Of a stretch of 64,000 bases of DNA, positions 5,831 to 54,129 are shown one piece after another. The notes beneath the pieces are model-generated. The model was not told the DNA's origin and did not search any database. It saw only the letters and a program-made list of their open reading frames with translations. A program made the position numbers and the translations under genes. Position 1 is the first letter of the stretch, and each line of letters starts with the position of its first letter. Location of the stretch: contig CACBBC010000005.1 in assembly GCA_902537415.1 (NCBI GenBank), positions 14,842 to 78,841 of the forward strand, written 5' to 3'. This DNA comes from an uncultured Alphaproteobacteria bacterium (lineage in GTDB: Bacteria; Pseudomonadota; Alphaproteobacteria; Rhodobacterales; Rhodobacteraceae).

Positions 5831-5920
5831 AGTGGATTGACAGGGGTGCCTCTTTGTTTTGTGAGGCTGAGAATAACCCTCAAACTTGAACCGGGTAATG
5901 CTGGCGTAAGGAGTCACTAG
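5831..5920 (+). promoter_or_regulatory. TPP (THI-box) riboswitch
   Basis: Conserved cores are readable in order: CAGGGGUGCC, GGCUGAGA, ACCC, UUGAACC, GGUAAUGCUGGCG, AAGGAG. The outer helix is CTAG..TGAC / GTCA-CTAG. The Shine-Dalgarno AAGGAG (5908-5913), 9 nt before the thiM ATG, lies inside the 3' part of the aptamer. Confidence 0.88.
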
Positions 5921-5922
5921 AT

Positions 5923-6741
5923 ATGCGCATTCCTCACATCGGCCACAAATCATTGGAGACCTCAATGAATAGTCTTGAAGAATTAAAAGCAAAAAATCCT
6001 CTCGTGCATTGTATAACTAATTATGTTTCCATGGATATTGCAGCAAATACGCTTTTGGCAGTTGGAGCGTCTCCAGCAATGATACATACTCCAGAAGAGA
6101 GTGGAGATTTTTCTCCAGTAGCGGGTGCACTAACCGTAAATATCGGTACTATTTCACCAAATTGGCTCGAAGGTATGGAAAAAGCAATTGAGGCGGCTAA
6201 TAAAGCAAAAGTCCCTTGGGTATTGGACCCCGTAGCACACTTTGCGACACCATACCGTCAAACCTCAATAGCAAGATTGATATCCCTAGAACCCTCAGTT
6301 GTGAGAGGGAATGCGTCTGAAATTTTAGCCTTACAAGGCGAAGAGACTGAAGCAAAGGGTGTAGACTCTCAAGAAGGAGTTGAAACAGCCTTAAATGCTA
6401 GTAAGAAACTTGCAAAAAAGCATAATTGTACAATTTTTGTGACTGGAGAAATAGACATAATCACAGATGGTGTAAGGGTTACTCGAGTATCAGGCGGATC
6501 ATCTTTTATGTCGAGTGTTACAGCTATTGGATGTTCTTTAACATGTCTAGTTGGCGCCTTCACAGCGATCACTGATCCCTACACTGCTAGCGTTAGTGCT
6601 GCTACTCTGTTCGCTGAAGCAGGACATAAAGCAAAATTAAGTGCTAATGGCCCAGGTTCATTTAGAACGCATTTTTTAGATCAACTTTCCCTTGTGAACC
6701 CTCATAATTTTTCAAATTTAAAGTGGGCTGATAGTGTTTGA
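5923..6741 (+). CDS. thiM: hydroxyethylthiazole kinase
   Basis: 272 aa with the ThiM-type N-terminus PLVHCITNYVSMDIAANTLLAVGASPAM. The start at 5923 is supported by AAGGAG 9 nt upstream; an alternative Met lies at 5965. Confidence 0.85.
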   Translation: MRIPHIGHKSLETSMNSLEELKAKNPLVHCITNYVSMDIAANTLLAVGASPAMIHTPEESGDFSPVAGALTVNIGTISPNWLEGMEKAIEAANKAKVPWVLDPVAHFATPYRQTSIARLISLEPSVVRGNASEILALQGEETEAKGVDSQEGVETALNASKKLAKKHNCTIFVTGEIDIITDGVRVTRVSGGSSFMSSVTAIGCSLTCLVGAFTAITDPYTASVSAATLFAEAGHKAKLSANGPGSFRTHFLDQLSLVNPHNFSNLKWADSV

Positions 6742-42102: not shown

Positions 42103-42948
42103 ATGAATAACACTGAACTTACTGATCATACAATTGAACTAAATGGTCTCAAAATCTCAAATAAGAACCAATTGACGCTTATTTCTGGTCCATGCCAGCT
42201 TGAAAGCCTTGAGCATGCTATGATGATCGCCGAAAAATTAATAGAAATCTGTGATCGTAATGCTATCAAATTTGTCTTTAAATCGTCATTTGATAAGGCC
42301 AATCGAACTTCACATTTATCAAAGCGTGGCCTTGGAATTGAAGAAGGTCTTAAAATCTTCCAAAAATTGAAGAGCAGTCTACACATATCCACATTGACGG
42401 ATGTGCACACACCAGAACAATGCGAGCTTGTAGCAAAAGAAGTCGATATTCTGCAAATACCTGCTTTTCTATGCCGACAGACGGATTTAATCATTGCAGC
42501 TAGTAAAACGAATAAACCCGTCAATATAAAGAAGGGGCAATTTCTATCCCCCGCTGAGATGCAGCAGGTGGCCGGAAAGTTTATATCTACAGGTAACAAA
42601 AATTTACTCCTTTGTGAACGAGGCACTACTTTTGGCTACAATGATTTGGTTTGCGACATGCGTTCCATAGAAATTCTTAGACAAAGTGGGTTCCCAACCG
42701 TTTTAGATATTACTCATTCTATTCAACAACCAGGAGGAAAAGGCTCAGAGAGTGGAGGCTCAAGAGAGTTCATTGAAACTTTAGCAAAAGCTGGCACAGC
42801 AGTTGGTATCGCTGGTGTGTTCATTGAGACCCACGAGAAGCCTGAGACAGCGCCGTCAGATGGTGCTTCTATGCTTCCTCTTGACCAGTTATCAGGGCTA
42901 TTAAGTAAAATTAAAGCAATTGATGATGTCGTAAAATCTTTTGACTGA
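42103..42948 (+). CDS. kdsA: 3-deoxy-8-phosphooctulonate (KDO-8-P) synthase
   Basis: 281 aa with KdsA motifs LISGPCQLES, FKSSFDKANR and DITHSIQQPGG. Confidence 0.9.
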   Translation: MNNTELTDHTIELNGLKISNKNQLTLISGPCQLESLEHAMMIAEKLIEICDRNAIKFVFKSSFDKANRTSHLSKRGLGIEEGLKIFQKLKSSLHISTLTDVHTPEQCELVAKEVDILQIPAFLCRQTDLIIAASKTNKPVNIKKGQFLSPAEMQQVAGKFISTGNKNLLLCERGTTFGYNDLVCDMRSIEILRQSGFPTVLDITHSIQQPGGKGSESGGSREFIETLAKAGTAVGIAGVFIETHEKPETAPSDGASMLPLDQLSGLLSKIKAIDDVVKSFD

Positions 42949-43001: not shown

Positions 43002-43076
43002 TGGGGTGTAGCCAAGTGGTAAGGCAGCGGGTTTTGATCCCGTGTACCGTAGGTTCGAATCCTACCACCCCAGCCA
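43002..43076 (+). tRNA. tRNA-Gln (anticodon UUG)
   Basis: TGGGGTGTAGCCAAGTGGTAAGGCAGCGGGTTTTGATCCCGTGTACCGTAGGTTCGAATCCTACCACCCCAGCCA. The cloverleaf folds by hand (U1-A72, discriminator G73, anticodon loop UUUUGAU). CCA is encoded. Confidence 0.9.
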
Positions 43077-43300
43077 CTCCTAACATTAGCTGAAGTGCTA
43101 TGTTTTCTTTGATATTGCTGATTAACTACTTACCCAATCAAAATCTATAGTCTATAGAATAATCTGTTTTTGATAACACTTTGACAACATTTACTTTCAG
43201 TGGGCGATTTTGACTTCCAATTTAGAAAATGTAAGCTTCAAGTTATGGATGGTTTCATTTAATATCTCGTATAAGAAGCTAATATCTAACTAGGATCCAT

Positions 43301-43645
43301 TTGATGATTAAAAATTTTATGGCTATTCATGACGTTCACAATGATGAAGCTGCAAAAGCATATAAATCGTATTTTAGGGAAACGTATGCAGATGTAGTAA
43401 CCCACGGAGAATGGGCTAAAACTACTGTTGGCGAATTTGCTACTGTAATTCAAGTATGGCAAGGTACTAAAAGCAACTTTTATTGCACTCATTTCCAAGC
43501 CGTTAGCGAGGAACATGTTTATAAACAGCTAGATGCTTGGGGTATGGATCGCTTTTTTAATTCAATGGTGATGGAGACAGAACGTTTCACTTCGGCTCTA
43601 CTTCCTGAAAATGAAGAGATCGATAAAACCTACTTTAAATCGTAA
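43301..43645 (+). CDS. hypothetical protein (114 aa), first ORF after tRNA-Gln
   Basis: This is an open frame only. There is a vague resemblance to small alpha/beta DUF4242-type proteins (FMAIHDVH...) that I cannot confirm. A 76-aa antisense ORF overlaps it. Confidence 0.4.
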   Translation: MMIKNFMAIHDVHNDEAAKAYKSYFRETYADVVTHGEWAKTTVGEFATVIQVWQGTKSNFYCTHFQAVSEEHVYKQLDAWGMDRFFNSMVMETERFTSALLPENEEIDKTYFKS

Positions 43646-43842
43646 CCCAATTCTTGCAAATGCCACTCCATAGATTTTTGACAACGCTTTCAACGCTATG
43701 GTTAAAAAATCATTGAACATTTTTACCACTTAAAACTCCAGCCATTTTCTTTAAGAAGATAAGTTTGCTGTTTCCTTAGAATGTTCTTCAGATTTTGAAA
43801 GCTATGAAATGTTTTTGAATAAGGATCACATTCTCTTTAAAA

Positions 43843-44784
43843 TCAATTAAATTTTATTACAAGTCGACCTCTGACCCCGCCACTTTCAAATCGTTTATGT
43901 GCTTCCGACACTTGAAACGGACTAAATGTATCGGCCAACCTCAATGAAAGTTTATTTGCGTTTACAAGCTTCCTTAAATCATCCAATTTTTCATACATGC
44001 AATCTTGAGTTCTTACCCATGTTTGCGTAAAATTTATATCACGCTCACCTGTCCCTTGATAACCTCTTACTGCGGTAAAAGAGCCTCCATTTTTGACTGC
44101 TGCAACTGCTTTTTCATTTAATAAAGCGCCGTCTGCTAAGCCGTCTACTCCCTCGGGAAACCGGTCCAATATGTGTTTAATAAATTCTTCTCCTCTTGGA
44201 AGCGATAGATCTGCACCAAGTGATTTAATTAAATTTTGATCTTTTTCTGACGTATCTGCTATCACATATAGACCTAAAGTTTTTGCAATTTGGATTATGT
44301 AACCTCCGTAGGCTCCTGCAGAGCCAGTAACTGCTAACTTATCGCCTGGGTTCAAGTTCAAAAGTTCTAGAGAAAGCTTTGCCGTTAAGCCATTCATTGG
44401 TAAAGTACACGCTTCTTCAAAACTGACCCCTTCGGGAATTGGAACCACTGCTCCTGATTTTAGAGCAATTTGTTCGCGGTATGCCCCGTGTTGACCATTT
44501 GGTACGACCATTGCCATGACCGCGTCGCCTTTTTTGAGATGAGTTTTGACGTTTTCTCCAATCTCCATTACTTTCCCAGAAACATCCATTCCCGGAACAT
44601 ATGGAGGATCATAAGGTTTTTGTCTCTCAGCTATACCTCCATTACGAGCTAAAATATCTGTAGGATTTATAGCTGCGCAAAACACCTGTAGCAGTATCTC
44701 ATCTGCTTCAGCTTTTACCTCAGGCACTTCAATAAGCTCTAGCACTTCAGGTCCGCCGTGCCTCATTAAACCAATCGCACGCAT
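43843..44784 (-). CDS. NADPH:quinone oxidoreductase / zinc-independent MDR-family oxidoreductase
   Basis: 313 aa with an MDR N-terminus (EVLELIEVPEVKAEADEILLQVFCAAINPTD) and a cofactor loop (VTGSAGAYGG). Confidence 0.8.
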   Translation of the reverse strand: MRAIGLMRHGGPEVLELIEVPEVKAEADEILLQVFCAAINPTDILARNGGIAERQKPYDPPYVPGMDVSGKVMEIGENVKTHLKKGDAVMAMVVPNGQHGAYREQIALKSGAVVPIPEGVSFEEACTLPMNGLTAKLSLELLNLNPGDKLAVTGSAGAYGGYIIQIAKTLGLYVIADTSEKDQNLIKSLGADLSLPRGEEFIKHILDRFPEGVDGLADGALLNEKAVAAVKNGGSFTAVRGYQGTGERDINFTQTWVRTQDCMYEKLDDLRKLVNANKLSLRLADTFSPFQVSEAHKRFESGGVRGRLVIKFN

Positions 44785-44850
44785 CTGTACTCCTTTGGTT
44801 ATGATAGATAGTTGGTTAAGTTATGTTACACTATAAAAAAAGAATTTTAA

Positions 44851-45603
44851 ATGATGTTACCAGACGATCTTACACCTGAGCAATTTAGTAAAAAACCGGC
44901 AGTCCTGAAAGCTCTTAATAATCCTCGTTCTCCGAGCAGTGTTTTAAATTATATGTGTGGCTGCGATATTAATAATCCTATTGATAGAAAAAGCCTTTTT
45001 TACGATGAAACAGTGGAACTACTATTAGGCATATGGTTTAGAAGTGGAACTGCTTTAGACGATATTTGCAAACCATTTTCATCTGTTATTCGTGAACTGA
45101 AAGCTGATCCACAAACTTTGGTGGAGGATAAATGGTTCACAATTGAGGGCCAGGTTGCTAGAGTGCTCTTAGCAGATCAACTATCTCGCTCATGTTTTCG
45201 AGGGACGGCTGAAGCTTTTTCGTATGACTACATAGGACGCGAGCTCGTTCGAGACCTAGTTAGTAAAGAGAAAATCAAACAAACTTTAAAATTGCCTCCA
45301 GCACTACTGTATTTACTTCCCTGGGCTTTGGCCCATTCAGAAGAAATAATCGACCTTGTTCGCGCACGCGAAATAATTGACATGGCAATTGGTGCTTATC
45401 CTGACTTCAGTTTATTTGAAGAGAGAAATAAGAAAGCGGTAGATCAACATAGGCAGGTTTTAGAAAAATTTGGGCGTTACCCGCAAAGAAATTCAGAGTT
45501 AGGAAGAGCTAATACCCCTGACGAAGAAAAATGGCTCAATGATAAAGAGAATTTACCAATTTGGGCAGGTGGCAGTCTTTCTTTTGATCAAAAAATTAGA
45601 TAA
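44851..45603 (+). CDS. DUF924-family protein
   Basis: 250 aa with the DUF924 signature FGRYPQRNSELGRANTPDEEKWL. Confidence 0.7.
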   Translation: MMLPDDLTPEQFSKKPAVLKALNNPRSPSSVLNYMCGCDINNPIDRKSLFYDETVELLLGIWFRSGTALDDICKPFSSVIRELKADPQTLVEDKWFTIEGQVARVLLADQLSRSCFRGTAEAFSYDYIGRELVRDLVSKEKIKQTLKLPPALLYLLPWALAHSEEIIDLVRAREIIDMAIGAYPDFSLFEERNKKAVDQHRQVLEKFGRYPQRNSELGRANTPDEEKWLNDKENLPIWAGGSLSFDQKIR

Positions 45604-45655
45604 GACGAAATTTATAAATCTTAGCTATATCTTTATTTTTATTATTCTATAGATT

Positions 45656-47065
45656 GTGCGAATGCTTGAAACAAAATCTATTCCTAAAGAATTACAATCT
45701 TCAATAAAAGAAAAAGGGTATGACAAACTAACGACAGTTCAAAGCTTAGTGCTTGATCCTGGCAACAAAGATAAAGATCTCCTGGTGAGCTCCCAAACAG
45801 GCTCTGGCAAAACACTTGCTTATGGGTTGTCAATATCGGTTGCTGGACTTAAAGAAATTCTGGATACAGATAACAAACTTCAAACCCTAATCGTTACCCC
45901 CACGCGTGAATTAGCTTTACAGGTTTTTAATGAGTTAGCATGGCTGTATTCTAAGACTGAGATCAGAATCTCAACGGCGATCGGCGGGATGGATATAAAA
46001 AAAGAAAGGAAAAATATTTCTAAAGGAGTTGATCTTTTAATAGGAACACCAGGAAGGATTAATGACCATGTACGTCGAAAAACTTTCCACTTAAATTATC
46101 TAAGATCGCTTGTCCTAGATGAAGCTGATGAAATGCTTGATTTGGGCTTTAAACAAGACTTAGATATGATTGTAAATCAAAGTCCCGCAAATAAGAGGGT
46201 ACTTATGTTTTCAGCAACCATCCCAAAAAAAATAATGTCATTAGCATCAAAGTACCAAAAAAACGCTGTCAGAATTGAAGCTACTAGTCTTGGCAAAGCC
46301 CATACTGATATTTCTTATGAAACATATTTAGTAAAAAAACATGATATTGAAAACGCAATATTCAACTTTCTCCGATTTCATGATGATAAGACTATTATTA
46401 TTTTTTGCTCTACTCGGAATGCTGTAACGCATATCTCTTCAAGAATATTAAATAGAGGTTTTTCTGTTGTCTCCTTATCTGGCGCATTGAATCAATCGGA
46501 GAGGTTCAAGGCATTACAATCCATAAAAAATGGTAGGTGTAAAATATGTGTTGCGACAGACGTAGCTGCTAGAGGTATTGACCTGGTTAACTTGGATATA
46601 GTGATACATGCTGAGCTCCCTCATAATCCAGAAACCTTAATACACAGAAGCGGGCGAACTGGGAGAGCTGGGAATAAGGGTCGAAGTATTCTTTTTTGTT
46701 CACCTAGCGAGAAGAGAAAATATGAAAAATTGATCAATTCTGCAAAGGTAAGACCGGCTATCAATAAATTCCTTTCTCAGGAAGAAATAGAACTTAAAGA
46801 TAATGAAAAGATCATAAACTACCTTTCAAGAAGCCAAAAAAATAGTTCTAGTGAACTCAAGTTTGCTAATGAGCTATTAACTCGATTTTCTAATGAAGAT
46901 TTGGCCTTAGCGCTAATTGAAAATTTCAAAGGAAAACTACCTCCTATAGAGGAGGTGGAAAGTCTTGGCGAAGATCAAATTGTTCAAATGAAAAATGATC
47001 GAAAAAAAAAGAAAAGAAGCAAACAAAATTCCAGGCGTAACTTTAGAAAAAGACGGGAATATTGA
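45656..47065 (+). CDS. DEAD-box ATP-dependent RNA helicase
   Basis: Motifs present are I (SQTGSGKT), II (DEAD), III (SAT) and VI (HRSGRTGRAG), with a basic C-terminal tail. The start may be GTG 45656 or ATG 45662. Confidence 0.85.
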   Translation: MRMLETKSIPKELQSSIKEKGYDKLTTVQSLVLDPGNKDKDLLVSSQTGSGKTLAYGLSISVAGLKEILDTDNKLQTLIVTPTRELALQVFNELAWLYSKTEIRISTAIGGMDIKKERKNISKGVDLLIGTPGRINDHVRRKTFHLNYLRSLVLDEADEMLDLGFKQDLDMIVNQSPANKRVLMFSATIPKKIMSLASKYQKNAVRIEATSLGKAHTDISYETYLVKKHDIENAIFNFLRFHDDKTIIIFCSTRNAVTHISSRILNRGFSVVSLSGALNQSERFKALQSIKNGRCKICVATDVAARGIDLVNLDIVIHAELPHNPETLIHRSGRTGRAGNKGRSILFCSPSEKRKYEKLINSAKVRPAINKFLSQEEIELKDNEKIINYLSRSQKNSSSELKFANELLTRFSNEDLALALIENFKGKLPPIEEVESLGEDQIVQMKNDRKKKKRSKQNSRRNFRKRREY

Positions 47066-47172
47066 CAACACTTTTGACAACGGTTTTCGTGATTTTCCTG
47101 ATAACGCATAAGGAAAATGAGAAGCATAAGAACTATTTTAAAGAGTTATGAGAATCCTGATAACAAATTCCA
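47062..47172 (+). repeat. conserved ~105-nt arm-like element, copy 1 (TTGACAAC x2, CGTGATTTTCCTG, GATAACG, CCTGATAACAAA)
   Basis: Aligns by eye with 49588-49698 and 52147-52256. It directly abuts the tRNA-half copy. Its first TTGACAAC contains the helicase stop codon. Confidence 0.8.
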
Positions 47173-47221
47173 CGGGTTTCGATCCCGTGTACCGTAGGTT
47201 CCAATCATACCACCCCAGCCA
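47173..47221 (+). repeat. copy of the tRNA-Gln 3' half (attR-like), 49 nt
   Basis: CGGGTTTCGATCCCGTGTACCGTAGGTTCCAATCATACCACCCCAGCCA aligned to tRNA positions 43028-43076 shows 3 mismatches by my count. Confidence 0.85.
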
Positions 47222-47277
47222 TCTATTGCTAACATGACGGTAAGTGATCACTTTTCAAAGCAAAATCAAATAAAAAT

Positions 47278-47985
47278 TTAATTAGCCATTTTTATGAAAA
47301 TGTCCCCCATACCTCCCCTGACCTCTTTGAATGGTGTATTATTTCTAAGTGGACAGTAGCTTCCTGTTATGACTTCTCTATTTATCTTTTCAATATCCTT
47401 AGGTGAACAGATTTTGCTTTCGAATAGCACTCCAACCACTAGCCTTCCATTTATTTCAGTCACTCGTTTTTTATTTAGTGAAGTGCCAACACAAATGGAC
47501 TCTCTATCGACCTCTTCAGGAAAATCTGGTTTTTCACACGGGTTTTTTATTGTTAATACGTTGATTAATTCCCTCTTATCATCAAATGTTTTTTCAAGGG
47601 CCTGAACCTGAACAAATTTCATCACATCACAAGAGCAGGGCCAACAACATCTGTAAAGCGAGCCACAAATTAATTCTTCATCCTGGCCTCTGACAGAAAC
47701 AAATTCAGGTTGAGAACCGGGCCGTACAAGTGACCCAGAGACACTACAATACATCTTATTCTTCTCGAAAAACTCATCTCTAGAATTTGAATTATCTAAA
47801 ATATATTTAAAAAATAGAGCACCGCCAGCATTTCTGTTTTTGTTTGGAAATATTTTCCCCCAATCTGCTCGTAACTCTTCATAATAACGTATCAATTTTA
47901 AACTATCAGAACTTCGAGACTCTCCTAAGCTTATTGGGGGGATTATTAAGCACATTACAAAAAGTGTGAAAATATACCGAGTCAT
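47278..47985 (-). CDS. secreted cysteine-rich protein of unknown function
   Basis: The Met at 47985 gives a signal peptide (MTRYIFTLFVMCLIIPPISLG) and lies 1 nt after the stop of the upstream FG-GAP gene. The cluster CGSLYRCCWPCSCD plus further Cys residues is present. I recognise no family. Confidence 0.55.
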   Translation of the reverse strand: MTRYIFTLFVMCLIIPPISLGESRSSDSLKLIRYYEELRADWGKIFPNKNRNAGGALFFKYILDNSNSRDEFFEKNKMYCSVSGSLVRPGSQPEFVSVRGQDEELICGSLYRCCWPCSCDVMKFVQVQALEKTFDDKRELINVLTIKNPCEKPDFPEEVDRESICVGTSLNKKRVTEINGRLVVGVLFESKICSPKDIEKINREVITGSYCPLRNNTPFKEVRGGMGDIFIKMAN

Positions 47986-47986
47986 A

Positions 47987-49483
47987 TCAATTTGTTTTAC
48001 CTTGGTTGAAAACATATTGGTGGTTCAGCTTTTGAATTTTGTATTTTGATTTTTGACCGTCAGTCCAAGTTATCTGAATGTATTCAATCTCTTCATTTTT
48101 ACGGATTCCAAAATGGGCTACTGGTTCCATTTGGCATAAATACCCGGAGCCTGCATCTATAGTTTTAGCGTGGGTTCTGAAATTTGTCTTAAGTGTTACA
48201 GTAGCACCTCTTGCTGGCGCATCGTAAGAGTTTTTAGGTTCTATTCTTAAATATTGAAAATCGTCCTTAACATTAGCTGAAAAAAGGCTTAGTGGTTCAG
48301 GAGCACTTTCACCATGAGCAATAAGTAGCTCCAAAATTCCGTCACCATTTAAATCCGCTACTGCTCCACCAGTACCCAGACCGGTCCTTTCTAGAGCATT
48401 TGTCAATTCCAACTGTTCGAGTTTATTGTTATCTAGAATTCTAAATAATTTATTTGGTTGACCAATATTGTTCAAAAATATCTCATCAAACCCATCATTA
48501 TCGAAATCGGCGGATATAACGGTTCTTATTTTCGAAGGTTGTCTAAAATTTAAAGACGCTGTATCGACAAATGTGTTGTTTGCATGGGTGTATATTCTGT
48601 GAAAACCATTCCAATTTCCTGTAATAAGGTCTAAGCTTCCATTATATCCAATATCTGATAAGGCCGTTCCTCTCCCATTTTGGAGAGTGTCATCGATGCC
48701 GTACTCTAAAGCTTTGTCAGTGTATGTGCCATCCTTGTTTATCAGTAAAAAATTAGGTCCTCGTTCATTCGCAGCGAAAATATCGACTTTTCCTGATAGA
48801 ATATGCCCTGCTACAACAGCACGACCACCGGTCGTAGAATTTATTCCAAGTGAAGGTGCTATGTCTTGAATAATACCAGTTTTCAGTTCGTAAAATCTTG
48901 TTGGACCCCCATAGTTGGAGACATAAATTCCATAGTTACCGTTGCCATGTCTATCAACGCAAGCCACTGACCTACCCGCCGTAAGGTTCAAGTTTGCCTG
49001 ATTTTTTTTCAAACTGAAGATATCGTAATTCGTTTTATCCAAATCTATCAGACGATCTGAATATTTTTTCGTTCCACTATAAGTGTCGGTATTCAAGAAA
49101 TAAATTTCCTCGTATCCATCCTGATCCACATCACAAGCAACAACTCCAATCGAAGATCTTTTTTCATCAGCAAATAGTTCACTAGAATTAATATTTGTAT
49201 ATGAACCATTCTCATAGCTCAGTGCGAGATTAGGATATCGAAACCCTGCAACTATGAACTCCATTTTTCCATCATCGTTAAAATCGGTTACGGCCACGCC
49301 ATAAGACAATCTTGGTACGTTATTTTCTATTTTATCTGTAATGTTTTGAAAAAACTGAGCATTAGCTGAATGATTGTTTTCAGATACACCGAAATAGACA
49401 GCAAAAATGGCTGTAACAAACGTACTTTTTTTGACCAAGACAATATATGCGGCAACTTTCTTAAACAATTTTTTTAAATCCAT
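47987..49483 (-). CDS. FG-GAP/VCBS-repeat protein with C-terminal ASPIC/UnbV domain (CRTAC1 family)
   Basis: 498 aa with a signal/anchor sequence and repeated Ca-binding-like DxDxDG motifs (DFNDDGKMEF, DVDQDGYEEIY, DFDNDGFDEIF, DLNGDGILELL). The C-terminus is GSGYLCQMEPVAHFGI...ITWTDGQ. Confidence 0.8.
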   Translation of the reverse strand: MDLKKLFKKVAAYIVLVKKSTFVTAIFAVYFGVSENNHSANAQFFQNITDKIENNVPRLSYGVAVTDFNDDGKMEFIVAGFRYPNLALSYENGSYTNINSSELFADEKRSSIGVVACDVDQDGYEEIYFLNTDTYSGTKKYSDRLIDLDKTNYDIFSLKKNQANLNLTAGRSVACVDRHGNGNYGIYVSNYGGPTRFYELKTGIIQDIAPSLGINSTTGGRAVVAGHILSGKVDIFAANERGPNFLLINKDGTYTDKALEYGIDDTLQNGRGTALSDIGYNGSLDLITGNWNGFHRIYTHANNTFVDTASLNFRQPSKIRTVISADFDNDGFDEIFLNNIGQPNKLFRILDNNKLEQLELTNALERTGLGTGGAVADLNGDGILELLIAHGESAPEPLSLFSANVKDDFQYLRIEPKNSYDAPARGATVTLKTNFRTHAKTIDAGSGYLCQMEPVAHFGIRKNEEIEYIQITWTDGQKSKYKIQKLNHQYVFNQGKTN

Positions 49484-49587
49484 CTTATTTATTCATCATG
49501 ACACAGAGGAACTTTTTTAATCTTATTTCTGAGACGGTGGCTCAAAGCTCCACGGGTGCAAAGTACCAGATAGACTAAAAAGGAAAA

Positions 49588-49698
49588 TTGACAACAAATT
49601 TGACAACACTCTCCGTGATTTTCACGATAACGCAAAAAAACTATCAGAAGGATAAAAAATATTTTTAAGGGTTTTATAAAACCTGATAACAAAATATA
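49588..49698 (+). repeat. conserved ~105-nt arm-like element, copy 2 (TTGACAAC x2, palindrome CGTGATTTTCACG, GATAACG, CCTGATAACAAA)
   Basis: Collinear with copy 1, with 8 differences in the first 50 nt by my count. Confidence 0.75.
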
Positions 49699-49735
49699 CA
49701 GATTTTATGTCAAGTACCAATGTTGAGAAATTGAA
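49699..49735 (+). repeat. strongly decayed copy of the tRNA-Gln 3' half
   Basis: CAGATTTTATGTCAAGTACCAATGTTGAGAAATTG retains GATTTT..., the GTACC core and TTGAGAA. The call rests mainly on the conserved element to the left and the conserved GCTAAC...TCACTT flank to the right. Confidence 0.45.
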
Positions 49736-49904
49736 AAGCTAACCGTTAAATCACTTACATTTAATACACACCAATGAATAAATTATTTTGTTTACGTTAC
49801 GTAATCATTGCAAGAAATAAATTTTGCAAATACCTTAACTATGTTGTGTTAATAATACATTTCTTTGCTTTTTGCGTGCTAGATCAACTGCATGAATTCA
49901 TAAT

Positions 49905-50699
49905 TTGGATAGATTACCCCGTTTCAATCAAGAATACGAACCCTTGAACGTGGCGTCACCATTCTCTGTAAAATTACTTCCGAAAGATATTCAACAAGTA
50001 GCTCTATTCCTAGACGTTGATGGCACTCTATATGAGATTGAAAACAGTCCAGGCTTAATCAAGCCTTGTTTTAGTTTGCAGAAAAAACTGCTCACCATCC
50101 GTAATAGACTTCAAGGTGCGTTAGGGCTTATAAGTGGCAGGACTTTAGATGATCTAGATAGGCTTTTTGATAAAAATAAAATTTCTTTTGCTGGGAACCA
50201 CGGAGCACAATTGAGAGATGCACTCCGAATTAAGGAGCACCAGGCCAATACCGAAAACATAAAGGATATTGCCCATAAAATTAAAGAATTACTTATTGGA
50301 CAAAAAAATATTGAGATTGAAAACAAGGGTTCAAATTTAACTGTTCATTTTCGAAATTCAACGATCGATAGGAAAAAAATCAATCGAATAATAATGGAGC
50401 TTGTCAAATCTGACCCTAGTTTAACTTTCCTAAAAGGAAAGGAAGTTTTGGAAGTTAAACCCCTGAGCCATAATAAAGGAACGGCAATTTCATATTTTAT
50501 GAAAACTAAACCTTTTATAAAACGGAGACCTATCTTTATCGGTGATGATGTAACCGATGAGGATGGTTTTGAAACTGTCAACAATAAAGGTGGCTGGTCA
50601 GTTCGTGTTGGAAATTATAAAAGGAGTAAGGCCAACTTCTTTTTACCTAATGTTAAATCCGTTCACGGAGTAATGAAGCAACTTCTAAAATCAAGGTAA
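49905..50699 (+). CDS. otsB: trehalose-phosphatase
   Basis: 264 aa with HAD motifs FLDVDGTL and GDDVTDEDGF. The ORF opens with a TTG start, and the true start is uncertain. Confidence 0.8.
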   Translation: MDRLPRFNQEYEPLNVASPFSVKLLPKDIQQVALFLDVDGTLYEIENSPGLIKPCFSLQKKLLTIRNRLQGALGLISGRTLDDLDRLFDKNKISFAGNHGAQLRDALRIKEHQANTENIKDIAHKIKELLIGQKNIEIENKGSNLTVHFRNSTIDRKKINRIIMELVKSDPSLTFLKGKEVLEVKPLSHNKGTAISYFMKTKPFIKRRPIFIGDDVTDEDGFETVNNKGGWSVRVGNYKRSKANFFLPNVKSVHGVMKQLLKSR

Positions 50700-50715
50700 A
50701 TCAAATAGGAGAGTT

Positions 50716-52098
50716 ATGAGTAGAGTAGTCGTTATTTCTAATAGGGTCATGCATCCCAACGAAAAAAAACCTGAGGCATCTGGCGGACTTGCCGTTGCAT
50801 TATATGATACGTTGAAGGAAACAAACGGTCTTTGGTTTGGTTGGAGTGGAAGAATTACCACAAAAGAAATCAAACCAAATGTAAAAAAGGATGAAGGAAT
50901 AACTTATGCCATAGTTGATTTAACCAAAAAAGATTACGAAAATTACTATAACGGTTATTGTAACGAAGTACTATGGCCTATTTTTCACTACAGATTGGAC
51001 TTGGTAGCTTATTCTAAATTAAAATTTGAAAGTTATAAGACCGTAAATGAGTCATTTTCATTTAAAGTCAAAAAACTTCTCAATAATGAAGATTTGATAT
51101 GGGTGCATGATTATCATTTTTTATTGATGGCAAGAGAGTTGAGAAAGCTTAAATGTACACAAAAAATAGGCTTCTTTTTACACATTCCATGGCCATCAAA
51201 AGAAATTTTGACTGCATTACCTGATCATCGAGAACTTGTTGATGCACTCTTAGAGTTTGACTTGATAGGCTTTCAAACTAGAAAACATGTACTTACCTTT
51301 TTAGATTATATCATTAGTGAGCTAGGAGGATCAGTTGAACCAGATGGATCAATATTTGCTTTAGGTAAAAAGGCTAAGGTAAAGCATTTTCCAATATCTA
51401 TAGATACGAACAAAATTATAAAAATATCAGAAGAGACTGATAACTCTCCTCAGGTAAAAAGACTAGTCAAAAGTATTAAAACGGACAAACTAATTATCGG
51501 CGTCGATAGGCTAGACTATTCGAAGGGACTTGAGCTTAGATTCGCAGCGTATAATCATCTTCTAAAAAATCATAGTGACCACATCGGATCAACAACTTTG
51601 CTTCAAATAGCCCCTACCTCAAGAGGTTCTGTTTTTCAATATAAAGAAATAAGAAAAAAATTAGAGCTTAGTGCTGGACAAATAAATAGTGCGTATGGTG
51701 ACTTTGATTGGACGCCAATAAGGTATCTCAACAAAGGATTCCAGCAAAAAAGTCTTATGGGATTTTTTAGAAATAGTAGAATTGGACTTGTAACACCACT
51801 AAGAGATGGAATGAATTTGGTGGCAAAGGAATATATAGCGGCTCAACGCGCGAGTGATCCAGGAGTGCTAATTTTGTCAAGATTTGCAGGCGCAGCAGAA
51901 GAATTGCCAGACGCATTGATTGTTAACCCCCATGATCCGGAGGGAGTAGCAAAAACATTGAATTATGCACTAAAAATGCCTAAGCAGGAACGCTTGAGGA
52001 GATGGCTAAATGCTTTTGATCAATTACATTCGTTTAATATAAATATTTGGAGGACTCACTTTATCGACGCATTGGAAACATCCATAATTACAAAGTAA
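50716..52098 (+). CDS. otsA: alpha,alpha-trehalose-phosphate synthase (GT20)
   Basis: 460 aa with OtsA signatures VVISNR...GGLAVAL...WFGWSG and IWVHDYHFLL. Confidence 0.88.
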   Translation: MSRVVVISNRVMHPNEKKPEASGGLAVALYDTLKETNGLWFGWSGRITTKEIKPNVKKDEGITYAIVDLTKKDYENYYNGYCNEVLWPIFHYRLDLVAYSKLKFESYKTVNESFSFKVKKLLNNEDLIWVHDYHFLLMARELRKLKCTQKIGFFLHIPWPSKEILTALPDHRELVDALLEFDLIGFQTRKHVLTFLDYIISELGGSVEPDGSIFALGKKAKVKHFPISIDTNKIIKISEETDNSPQVKRLVKSIKTDKLIIGVDRLDYSKGLELRFAAYNHLLKNHSDHIGSTTLLQIAPTSRGSVFQYKEIRKKLELSAGQINSAYGDFDWTPIRYLNKGFQQKSLMGFFRNSRIGLVTPLRDGMNLVAKEYIAAQRASDPGVLILSRFAGAAEELPDALIVNPHDPEGVAKTLNYALKMPKQERLRRWLNAFDQLHSFNINIWRTHFIDALETSIITK

Positions 52099-52146
52099 TA
52101 AGGTTATAAACAAAAAGAAGGCACTTTATTCTTTTAAGTTAACTTT

Positions 52147-52256
52147 TTGACAACACTATTCGTGATTTTCACGGTAACTCATTAGAGGCATCAGAAGTAT
52201 AAGAATAACATTAAAAAGTTATTAGAAACCTTATAACTCCTTGTAACAATAACTAC
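52147..52256 (+). repeat. conserved ~105-nt arm-like element, copy 3 (single TTGACAAC, palindrome CGTGATTTTCACG, GGTAAC)
   Basis: Collinear with copies 1 and 2, but its distal half is more diverged. Confidence 0.7.
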
Positions 52257-52302
52257 GTTTTGATCCAGTGTACCGTAGGTTCGAATTCTACCATCCTAGC
52301 CA
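52257..52302 (+). repeat. copy of the tRNA-Gln 3' half (attR-like), 46 nt
   Basis: GTTTTGATCCAGTGTACCGTAGGTTCGAATTCTACCATCCTAGCCA shows 4 mismatches to the tRNA by my count. Confidence 0.8.
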
Positions 52303-52366
52303 TTTGTCCGTAAGTGCTTAGTGATTCTCTAGAATTTATTTTCCTGCACTACTCCATTTTTGAATT

Positions 52367-52780
52367 TTACTCATACATTCGCGCAACTGCAGGTATCACT
52401 CCTCTGTGGTTCAGGCTTTGATCAACTGAAGATGGCTTCAATATCTCTTGTAAATAGTCCAATGCATTCCGCGGATCACAATGCCCACACATGAAAATAT
52501 CAAGTGAAGCAAAATTACGTTCTGGCCAAGTATGTATACTTATGTGACTTTCAGATAAAACTGTTACACCGCTTACGCCCATACCTTCGCCAAAAGGATG
52601 ATAGTAAGAATGCAGGATCATCGCGCCAGCCTTGCGAGCACTTTCTTCTATTGTTTCTTTTATAAAATCTAAATCACCCATTCGTTCCACATCCCAAAAA
52701 TCAGCAAGTATATGCCTTCCTGCAAATTGATCACCTGTTTTTGAACATGTTACGAAATAGTCGCTATCGAGATGGTTCAT
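52367..52780 (-). CDS. speD: S-adenosylmethionine decarboxylase proenzyme (small bacterial class)
   Basis: Contains the canonical self-processing and active-site motif LSESHISIHTWPE. The Met at 52780 lies 1 nt after the speE stop. The longer ORF reaching 52849 overlaps speE and is not needed. Confidence 0.85.
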   Translation of the reverse strand: MNHLDSDYFVTCSKTGDQFAGRHILADFWDVERMGDLDFIKETIEESARKAGAMILHSYYHPFGEGMGVSGVTVLSESHISIHTWPERNFASLDIFMCGHCDPRNALDYLQEILKPSSVDQSLNHRGVIPAVARMYE

Positions 52781-52781
52781 T

Positions 52782-53693
52782 TTATACTGCCTCCTCTTCT
52801 TTCTTGGATCTTCTATTAATGTCATCTCGGATCCATGGAGGAAGAACAAAAGATGCCAAATGCATTTCTGGACTGTAATGTCTAGTTTTAAAACATGCTC
52901 TTTTAAAACGTTTGTTTAGTGTTTCTAAAAGGGGTAGTGACCAAGTAGAATTAAGAACTCCAAAACCGAGTGTCATGTATCCGCCATAATACGTTGGGAT
53001 CGCAGCAATATAACAACTAGCGCTCAATCCTGCATTCTTTAGGCAAGATAAAGTACCTCCAACCTCACCTGGCTGGAATTGAGGGACACCTCCTTGGGTC
53101 GAAACCACAGCATTTTCCCTAAGAATTTTTACTAAGTTTTTATAAAATTCATGGCTGAATAATTTCTCCCCAGGGCCAATAGGATCAGTTGAGTCAATTA
53201 TAACCGCATCAAACTTTAAATCTGTTTCTTTCACATACATAAAAGCATCACCAACGATTAGTTGCACTCTAGTATCTTTGTAAACTTCACCTCCATTATT
53301 AACGCTAGGTATATAGTCCACACAGGCATCAATCACCATCTGATCAATTTCTGCCATGACAACCCTTTTTATGCCTTCATGCCGAAGAACTTCGCGCAAA
53401 ATCCCACCATCACCACCGCCAATAATAAGAACATTCTCTGGTTTTTCATGCGAAAAAAGGGGTACATGCGTCATCATCTCTTGATAAACGAATTCATCAC
53501 ATTCTGTGATCTGAATTGCACCATCAATGGCTAATACACGACCAAGTGTATCGTTCTCGTAAATTGCAATATCTTGATATTCGCTCTTTCCTTCAAATAA
53601 GGTTCTATTGATTTCGAAACCCTGGAATGCCTTACTCCCTTTAAGGGTATAAATGCTTTCAACATCTTCTATAAAATTACGCCGCGCGCTCAT
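52782..53693 (-). CDS. speE: spermidine synthase / polyamine aminopropyltransferase
   Basis: 303 aa with the SpeE signature VLIIGGGDGGILREVLRH and DSTDPIGPG. Confidence 0.88.
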   Translation of the reverse strand: MSARRNFIEDVESIYTLKGSKAFQGFEINRTLFEGKSEYQDIAIYENDTLGRVLAIDGAIQITECDEFVYQEMMTHVPLFSHEKPENVLIIGGGDGGILREVLRHEGIKRVVMAEIDQMVIDACVDYIPSVNNGGEVYKDTRVQLIVGDAFMYVKETDLKFDAVIIDSTDPIGPGEKLFSHEFYKNLVKILRENAVVSTQGGVPQFQPGEVGGTLSCLKNAGLSASCYIAAIPTYYGGYMTLGFGVLNSTWSLPLLETLNKRFKRACFKTRHYSPEMHLASFVLPPWIRDDINRRSKKEEEAV

Positions 53694-54129
53694 TTCTTTC
53701 CTCCTCGGTAAAGTTTCTTACATTACACTGATTTGCCTTGTGAAACCCCCTGTCCATATTATGCATATTGGCTTGAGTAGGTTTGAAATATTTTTTACAA
53801 ATTTCAAGCGCTACTTCTACGTCAAATGCTTTACAAGAGAAAACATCAATATACACCTGTCCAATATTTTCAGCAAAATGTGCGGCAACGTTGGAAGTTT
53901 CAATCATCTGAAGTAAAGTGTAGCCCGCAGCCTCATGGGAATGCGTGGCAAAATGCTCGATTATTGGTTCACCGTAAGCTACCATGTCAATAGCCTGTAC
54001 TAGCTCTTTACTCCAATCCAGTATATTTTCTTTATCTGCTAGTAACTCTTTGGGACAACCGTTGAAGTCTAATACTAAATGCTGACCCCACGGTGCTCGC
54101 GCCGAATTAGTTTCATTTTGTGTCGTCAT
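53677..54129 (-). CDS. divergent AdoMetDC-fold paralogue (function unresolved)
   Basis: 150 aa. GQHLVLDFNGC...YTLLQMIETSNVAAHFAE...IDVFSCK is collinear with small SpeD proteins, but the ESH...HTWPE core is replaced by ETS...AHFAE. Confidence 0.65.
   Translation of the reverse strand: MTTQNETNSARAPWGQHLVLDFNGCPKELLADKENILDWSKELVQAIDMVAYGEPIIEHFATHSHEAAGYTLLQMIETSNVAAHFAENIGQVYIDVFSCKAFDVEVALEICKKYFKPTQANMHNMDRGFHKANQCNVRNFTEEERNERAA

Follow-up and report, generated by a model that had tools for sequence, protein, structure and literature searches.

An arm sequence joined to tRNA-Gln halves bounds exchangeable gene cassettes in a genomic island of uncultured marine Alphaproteobacteria

Additive flexible genomic islands at tRNA genes have been described in Alteromonas (PMC4898812), in 'Ca. 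Actinomarinales' (PMC7771536) and, at a tRNA-Lys gene, in 'Ca. Methylopumilus' (PMC10872708), judging from the portions of these reports that were available to us. Islands of Prochlorococcus likewise hold tandem inserts separated by partial tRNAs, in which newcomers displace older inserts from the tRNA, and the tycheposons of the same organism are defined by an integrase of their own and frequently carry a replication module (bioRxiv 10.1101/2020.12.28.424599). A further case, available to us in part, is that of the tandem ssrA islands of Dehalococcoides (PMC3146451). Here we examine a 64,000-nucleotide stretch of the genome of an uncultured member of the Rhodobacteraceae (contig CACBBC010000005.1, positions 14,842 to 78,841 of the forward strand; hereafter the window), in which each of three arms of ~110 nt is continued directly by the final 49 nt of tRNA-Gln in copy. 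Islands of this kind are already known; the arm of ~122 nt (family length) that accompanies each tRNA repeat was found without prior description in our literature searches, which also returned no description of this host group or of a tRNA-Gln site for such islands. We think it rather probable that the element is the arm of a recombinase-recognised attachment unit (an attP-type P arm), and that these units bound recombinase-free cassettes mobilised in trans.

The composite unit is ~170 bp long, and its consensus across the family reads TTGACAACACTTTTGACAACAGTTTTCGTGATTTTCCTGATAACGCATAAGAAGCATGAGAAGGATAAGAACTATTTTAAAGGGTTATGAGAATCCTGATAACTCCTGATAACAATATCCA followed directly by CGGGTTTTGATCCCGTGTACCGTAGGTTCGAATCCTACCACCCCAGCCA. 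Direct repeats are kept throughout the family arm, with TTGACAAC present twice, CCTGATAAC three times and AT[A/G]AGAA three to four times, and TTTTGACAACAGTTTTCGTGATTTTCCTGATAAC forms an invariant block. When 39 copies were aligned together with their flanks, conservation set in at the first TTGACAAC and ended exactly at the CCA of the tRNA, and no conserved sequence was seen upstream or downstream of the unit. Identity to the tRNA sets in with the 5' half of the anticodon stem, and the last two bases of the arm lengthen this stem into a 6-bp inverted repeat, CACGGG-TTTTGAT-CCCGTG, which is perfect in 35 of the 58 distinct full-length units. The conserved dyad of the unit is this anticodon stem, lying across the junction of arm and half. 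An earlier note on the window, made from its letters alone, had instead counted a perfect palindrome, CGTGA-TTT-TCACG, among the shared architecture; this form turns out to be a lineage variant, found in a single member (1/58), with TTCCTGATAAC standing in its place in 48/58.

In the window, the units follow an intact tRNA-Gln(UUG) gene (43002-43076, + strand; ARAGORN and Rfam), the only gene of its type there, with its anticodon stem-loop at 43027-43043 and the loop at 43032-38. This gene anchors the array and would play the attB/attL role. Unit 1 is the best preserved: its arm (47062-47172, +) is 94.6% identical to the family consensus and its tRNA-Gln 3' half (47173-47221, +) is 94% identical to the gene, with the CACGGG/CCCGTG inverted repeat around a 7-nt copy of the anticodon loop at 47171-47189 (+), which we read from the sequence, which also appears as a hairpin in a terminator scan and which is the putative region of crossover. 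The repeats of this arm lie at 47062-69 and 47074-81 (TTGACAAC), at 47097-105 and 47156-164 (CCTGATAAC), and at ~47106-47133 (the AT[A/G]AGAA type). Unit 2 (49588-49746, +) has an arm at 49588-49698 with 81% identity to the consensus and a decayed half at ~49699-49746, and this decayed version is also found in other loci of the family (L021, L033, L051). Unit 3 (52143-52302, +) is the final one of the array and is followed by speD; its arm (52143-52253) is 80% identical to the consensus and its half (52254-52302, +) 86% identical to the gene. Both the window copies 1 and 2 have lost one member of the tandem CCTGATAAC pair, which leaves two of the three in the consensus. The three collinear + strand copies noticed earlier, each placed before a tRNA-Gln 3' half, were recovered independently by a repeat finder (47056-47179, 49582-49705 and 52129-52252, at 100/76/63% identity) and by a profile search (47061-47225, 49588-49746 and 52143-52306), and the observation that the third copy has one TTGACAAC unit holds for its arm. 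A recount gives 9 differences between copies 1 and 2 over their first 50 positions, one more than the 8 first reported. The repeats far exceed chance: TTGACAAC occurs 8 times against 2.4 expected, a number that none of 100 shuffles reached, and the 18-mer CGTGATTTTCACGATAAC around the palindrome, with at most 3 mismatches, has 3 matches where 0.04 would be expected.

The count of three is itself too low. A fourth unit, internally deleted and decayed, lies at ~43677-43746 (+) and forms the border between a cassette with a 114-aa open reading frame (ORF) and a cassette with genes for a quinone oxidoreductase and a DUF924 protein. We recognise it by synteny, because its left flank matches a cassette-unit junction of L027 and its right flank matches the junction of a unit with the quinone oxidoreductase gene in L013. 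Within the first cassette, a possible vestige of an arm start, TTTGATAACAC-TTTGACAACA, is found at 43168-43190 (+). The words that had been reported at 43171-43188 are present, and their kinship with the arm is borderline, as the local alignment of 43168-43300 to the arm scores 45 against a shuffle maximum of 44; we regard this as weak evidence.

To place these copies in a wider context, we scanned one genome per species, for 185,579 species, and metagenomes besides, with a pattern of the arm only (TTGACAAC-N6-CGTGATTTTC-NN-G-N-TAAC, exact match). This returned 21 genome loci and 22 metagenome loci, 43 related loci in all, the genome loci coming without exception from uncultured marine Alphaproteobacteria represented by single-cell genomes and metagenome-assembled genomes. 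As exact-match scans of one pattern, they describe a sample outside which more divergent relatives fall, and many of the loci come from single-cell or metagenome assemblies, in which chimeras are possible. The tRNA-Gln half follows the arm at a fixed distance in every match whose sequence continues. A profile built from these copies found 92 arm-bearing units in 280 kb, with every complete unit joined to a tRNA half, all 92 on the strand of the tRNA and none on the opposite one, at a median spacing of 2.0 kb (range 0.7-7.3 kb). Across the 43 loci the arm consistently marks a cassette boundary. The left border is kdsA-tRNA-Gln in 13 loci, and wherever the flanks are visible, kdsA/tRNA-Gln and speD/speE enclose the array to which the units belong. 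No recombinase gene was seen in the arrays examined. The element is not the generic dispersed repeat that would have spoken against it, and its motifs are strongly conserved in relatives. We rejected a dispersed intergenic repeat of the REP (repetitive extragenic palindrome) or MITE (miniature inverted-repeat transposable element) kind, given that the window copies and the loci with visible flanks all place the unit in the tRNA-Gln array and in one orientation.

A few loci deserve separate mention. At 104-175 of L038, a shortened arm stands beside ctpA-like, rppH and atpCD genes in a contig of 29% G+C, away from the kdsA/speD context, which could reflect a different lineage, a rearrangement or a chimera. 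Two metagenome scaffolds of 75 kb, L052 and L200, end ~130 nt past kdsA, at tRNA-Gln, as would be expected if variation of the array within natural populations breaks assemblies at this point. In L044 (1-12500), L048 and L040, at least 12 kb of 50-55% G+C lie right before a unit in a context of 32-37% G+C; the genes of this stretch include tdh, kbl, thrC, a creatinase gene, dimethylglycine-dehydrogenase-like and MttB-like genes, a LysR gene and one for a protein with an HGGxSTG motif. The stretch is either an import from a high-GC relative or the product of chimeric assembly.

The conservation of the arm is not that of a neutral sequence. The non-coding arms of the window are 90-96% identical to those of genomes in which the kdsA-tRNA flank is only 68-70% identical at the DNA level, and the 58 distinct full-length units, with a mean mutual identity of 90%, interleave invariant motif blocks with columns that vary in 13-27 of the 58. 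Because invariant blocks alternate with variable columns, we take the pattern to reflect site-specific constraint and not neutral decay or uniform homogenisation. It follows that a reading of the arms as inert scars, the remains of past integrations by one element family with no present function, is in our view very improbable. Many copies are indeed shortened or decayed (units 2 and 3 of the window as well as its remnant at 43677) and no enzyme was found, as such a reading would have it, but the excess of arm identity over that of the flank does not look like neutral decay, and the same motifs are retained across the 58 units. At least four seemingly independent truncations or deletions of the arm stop at the same point, after GAACTATTTT (profile column ~80, which corresponds to ~47139/47140 of the window), in the loci L034, L035, L037, L038, L039 and L049; this could be a second hot spot of breakage or recombination, or an artefact of local alignment.

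Constraint of this kind could in principle serve expression, and the earlier note had raised a promoter or a small RNA as alternatives. TTGACA is the sigma-70 -35 consensus. The arm contains this hexamer, and the end of the unit is a tRNA-like 3' part, both of which would suit a promoter, a small RNA or a tRNA-like processing signal of each cassette. However, a promoter scan left every arm without a + strand call, and promoter-like sites number 31 in the region where 31.5 are expected; the unit folds no better than its shuffles (z = -1.2 as RNA, -0.9 as DNA), RNAalifold on the 58 units gives -0.7 kcal/mol and leaves the arm without a helix, and Rfam yields no match. The cargo genes, moreover, lie in both orientations relative to the unit. 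We therefore find no support for these alternatives and hold a role in expression to be the least credible of the explanations considered here. A coding unit, suggested by an open frame on the reverse strand, was rejected as well: indels of 1 nt and 10 nt among functional-looking units exclude a coding frame, and the variable columns lack codon periodicity.

What the units bound are cassettes of one to seven genes in both orientations. Examples of their cargo are a DEAD-box helicase, a quinone oxidoreductase with a DUF924 protein, an adenylate cyclase-TPR protein, FG-GAP proteins and otsBA, together with ABC and TRAP transporters, EamA exporters, methyltransferases, hydrolases and SnoaL-like proteins. 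The array of the window (43077-52302; delimited by Pfam cargo and the ends of BLAST segments) consists of five such cassettes, carrying in order the 114-aa ORF; the quinone oxidoreductase and DUF924 genes; the DEAD-box helicase gene; a 245-aa ORF with a gene for an FG-GAP/ASPIC protein; and otsB with otsA. The unit expected between the DUF924 and helicase cassettes has been lost entirely. Cassettes are reshuffled independently of one another, as the same ones are found in varied order and with varied neighbours among genomes, and the BLAST segments shared by the window and other loci stop exactly at the ends of units or of the tRNA (43076, 43735/43748, 45605/45607, 47221/47222 and 52304/52305). 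As a separate observation, the stop codon of the helicase gene (47063-65) lies inside the first TTGACAAC of the unit 1 arm, so that the cargo abuts the arm without a spacer; the stop codon of the last cargo gene falls within the first TTGACAAC in L011, L017 and L035 too, a methyltransferase gene being one such case outside the window.

The clearest case of exchange is that with L051, a contig of a single-cell genome (CACAUB010000010.1). The flanks of the two loci differ considerably (88% identity in kdsA and 93% in speD), whereas their arrays are nearly identical, at 99.76% over 43018-47221 and 98.9% over 47222-51100, which indicates a recent transfer of the array as a block between the two genomes. 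Mismatches of the flank type end at 43017, in the D-loop and immediately before the anticodon stem. The left breakpoint of the exchange must therefore fall within the tRNA gene, no further upstream than this stem. Where the two inner tiers meet, the step in divergence falls at unit 1 (p = 2e-6 for a boundary there). The block nearest the tRNA is the youngest in this comparison, as expected if new cassettes enter at the tRNA and displace the older ones outward, the order described for tandem elements in Prochlorococcus islands.

The layout of the unit offers a mechanism by which this could happen. Inverted sites around a 7-bp spacer, beside an arm of direct repeats, are the plan of lambda-type tyrosine-recombinase sites, and tRNA-targeting tyrosine integrases reportedly include an anticodon-loop class of sites, distinguished by Williams in 2002. 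Much of what defines an attP is found here, in that a copy of the tRNA 3' end bounds the insert and the stem supplies inverted core sites around a 7-bp spacer. The core at the junction of arm and half would thus consist of the inverted 6-bp sites CACGGG and CCCGTG around the anticodon-loop spacer, and the direct repeats of the arm would position a tyrosine-type recombinase and accessory proteins. A putative circular cassette bearing a single unit would cross over within the anticodon-loop region, either with the tRNA gene or with another unit; such an event would rebuild the tRNA and leave the arm and the displaced half at the far end of the insert. Since the cassettes carry no recombinase, the enzyme would have to act in trans. 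That the element is the arm of a recombination site, belonging to one element family and with its enzyme absent here, had been proposed in the earlier note. The comparison of 43 loci strengthens this proposal, and its one part that did not survive is the dyad on which it leaned, which is not conserved.

Several observations weigh against an attachment site. No cognate integrase adjoins the site in the arrays examined or in the window, and a search of these arrays for genes of integrases, excisionases, transposases, phages or plasmids found none. For this hunt, all ORF clusters of the 43 loci were read, and Pfam was run on the window array, its right flank and unlabelled ORFs, and six more kdsA contigs were checked through their precomputed Pfam tags. 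Beside the tRNA, too, the ORFs encode cargo (helicase, oxidoreductases, adenylate cyclase-TPR, FG-GAP proteins). No recombinase was seen in the 64-kb window either, where 1-29 kb was read by eye and 29-42 kb was covered by the Pfam tags of homologous loci, and a phmmer search of 1,303 ORF segments with a genuine integrase of a tRNA-Gln phage reached an E-value of 1.4 at best. The arm does not occur in the viral contigs of IMG/VR (six scans with patterns of the arm, the arm-half junction and the tRNA half) or in GenBank phages and PLSDB plasmids, in which the tRNA part of the unit alone finds matches. No circular junction was seen, that is, no locus in which a cassette begins anew directly after its own unit. 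The unit also has one arm. Many well-studied attP sites have a conserved arm on both sides of the core. In the 200 nt past the CCA of 55 distinct cassettes, we find no conserved sequence and no enrichment of arm motifs that would betray a P' arm, and at most a weak [T/C]C[T/C]TAAA just past the CCA. The linkage between arm variants and upstream cargo weakens little by little from the left edge of the unit, without a switch at the core, and informative variants are too few in the tRNA half for polymorphisms to place the crossover. For L051, the change point of the divergence step is placed only loosely by maximum likelihood (46838-48988), and the outer (right) breakpoint falls inside otsA and not at a unit, so that homologous recombination certainly acts at this locus as well.

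Several of these observations would commend a different explanation, in which former attachment units now serve mainly as ~170-bp anchors of portable homology. DNA acquired from relatives would then enter, leave or change its position in the array through RecA-type recombination of one unit with another or with the tRNA, with no site-specific enzyme involved. The lack of a recombinase near the arrays, the homologous crossover that ended the L051 exchange inside otsA, the deletions that occur between CCTGATAAC repeats and between other points of the unit, the gradual decay of the association between arm variants and upstream cargo, and the 90% average identity that units share with each other would all be accommodated. 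Homology anchors should, however, be evenly conserved, in contrast to the alternating invariant blocks and variable columns described above. Such anchors would also leave the perfect inverted repeat across the arm/half junction and the sharp left boundary of the arm unexplained, and 170 bp at 90% identity would be a poorer substrate than the cargo genes themselves. On balance, we consider homology alone an unlikely explanation of the units, although it is the most serious of the rivals, and return to an attachment site as the reading that better fits their architecture.

If the units are attachment sites, the absence of a recombinase from the cassettes means that the enzyme is encoded elsewhere in the genome, is carried on an element that has not been sampled, or is extinct. 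It is tempting to speculate that the tRNA-Gln gene serves as an integron-like platform, in which recombinase-free cassettes with one-armed units of 170 bp are captured, reordered and exchanged across genera by a recombinase acting in trans, possibly a host-encoded one, with the arm as its recognition element; we offer this stronger form as a tentative possibility, somewhat doubtful as things stand. A viral source of the arm was rejected, the IMG/VR scans having returned no arm. Their matches were chance hits in coding DNA, phage tRNA-Gln genes, proviruses next to a full tRNA-Gln, and one group of phages with an unrelated attP. As the arm is found in none of the viral, phage and plasmid collections, neither a donor element nor the enzyme has been identified. 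The phage group (L054, L059, L060, L063, L065 and L074) combines an arm unrelated to ours with a perfect ACGCT-N7-AGCGT dyad and with the 3' part of a different tRNA-Gln variant, and has a 358-aa tyrosine integrase encoded directly past the CCA (e.g. L063 2158-3426). One further candidate, the 20-mer TTGACAACACTTTTGACAAC found after the terminator of a tRNA-Lys in high-GC provirus flanks (L079, L104, L115, L154 and L155), was judged a coincidence; these copies are in the opposite orientation and have nothing else in common with the unit.

The surroundings of the array are conserved chromosomal genes. On the left it is preceded by kdsA (42103-42948, +; Pfam), a flank also found in L008, L016, L020, L027, L033, L047, L051-L053, L197, L200 and L201, and on the right it is followed by speD, the gene for AdoMet decarboxylase (52367-52849, -; Pfam), and then speE, a flank shared with L016, L026, L028 and L051. 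At this right border, two ORFs of the S-adenosylmethionine decarboxylase family (52367-52849 and 53677-54129, both -) bracket a spermidine synthase gene. The window has a G+C content of ~37%, and close homologues of its kdsA product bear the name 'Paracoccaceae bacterium' at NCBI; from this indirect evidence we take the hosts to be a low-GC marine lineage, probably of Rhodobacterales or Paracoccaceae type. Its left 42 kb encode housekeeping functions, among them cell-shape genes and an Mrp antiporter at 29-42 kb, and a thiamine pyrophosphate (TPP) riboswitch (5832-5929, +) stands before a thiamine cluster of thiM, thiE, thiD, ABC transporter and TenA-like genes.

Although they carry few recognisable mobile elements, streamlined marine bacteria are efficient at exchanging accessory genes, and the arm bears on how they may do so. 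It is a specific marker of ~120 nt with which the cassette pool of this exchange system, so far made up of transporters, trehalose synthesis, helicases, oxidoreductases and signalling proteins, can be retrieved from metagenomes. The same marker allows gene flow between lineages to be measured, and it can be used as bait for the missing recombinase. Should this enzyme prove to be chromosomal and to act in trans, the system would amount to a tRNA-based counterpart of integrons. If, on the other hand, no enzyme exists, fossil attachment sites would be shown to be retainable as homology anchors for the exchange of cassettes.

How, then, does the array compare with systems already described? Like integrons, it consists of recombinase-free cassettes that each end in a recombination site (here a putative one) and are shuffled between genomes, and some of the cargo ORFs terminate at or within the start of the site. 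Unlike integrons, it lacks intI, attI and Pc, and kdsA and tRNA-Gln stand at its head. The unit differs from attC, which is conserved in structure, in being conserved in sequence (mean 90%) and non-folding (z = -0.87 as DNA, with no consensus structure), and the cassettes differ from those of integrons in holding one to seven genes in both orientations and in their tRNA anchor. We do not, therefore, regard the array as an integron, because it lacks intI and attI, its unit is sequence- and not structure-conserved, and its cassettes are multi-gene and bidirectional. The resemblance to tycheposons is that of tRNA-anchored islands in streamlined marine bacteria, with tandem inserts and metabolic cargo. 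Tycheposons, however, carry a tyrosine or large serine recombinase of their own at the end next to the tRNA. All arrays examined here lack both an integrase and a replication module, and by definition the array is therefore not a tycheposon.

CIMEs (cis-mobilisable elements) are flanked by att sites, have no recombination genes of their own and rely on those of a related element, and they take part in accretion with integrative and conjugative elements (ICEs). The array is similar to CIMEs and, as far as the available part of the account of the ssrA islands extends, to those islands as well, in the absence of recombination genes and in tandem accretion at a single RNA gene. It departs from CIME and ICE accretion in that no cognate partner bearing an integrase was found, and its cassettes are far smaller. 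The closest likeness in the site itself is to the att sites of tRNA-integrating tyrosine recombinases, with which the unit shares a duplicated tRNA 3' part that extends from anticodon stem to CCA, an inverted core, a 7-bp spacer and a direct-repeat arm. The attP of the phages that use another tRNA-Gln follows the same plan, but there an integrase adjoins the site. The unit differs from the attP and attR of integrating elements in having no adjoining integrase and one conserved arm, and in being repeated up to at least five times per array. Because a cognate integrase was sought and not found, we do not file the unit in any specific family of integrase att sites.

The array itself has every feature of an additive flexible genomic island. 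As in the available portions of the published descriptions, it occupies a fixed site next to a tRNA gene between core genes, its cassettes vary in number and order, and each of them ends in a partial tRNA direct repeat. Near-identical cassettes occur in divergent genomes in those islands, just as here the array is 98.9-99.8% identical between genomes whose flanks share 88-93%. The difference lies in the repeat: in those portions of the descriptions the tRNA repeat alone is reported (~20 nt in Methylopumilus), whereas the array described here adds to each tRNA repeat an extra arm of ~122 nt that is shared across genera.

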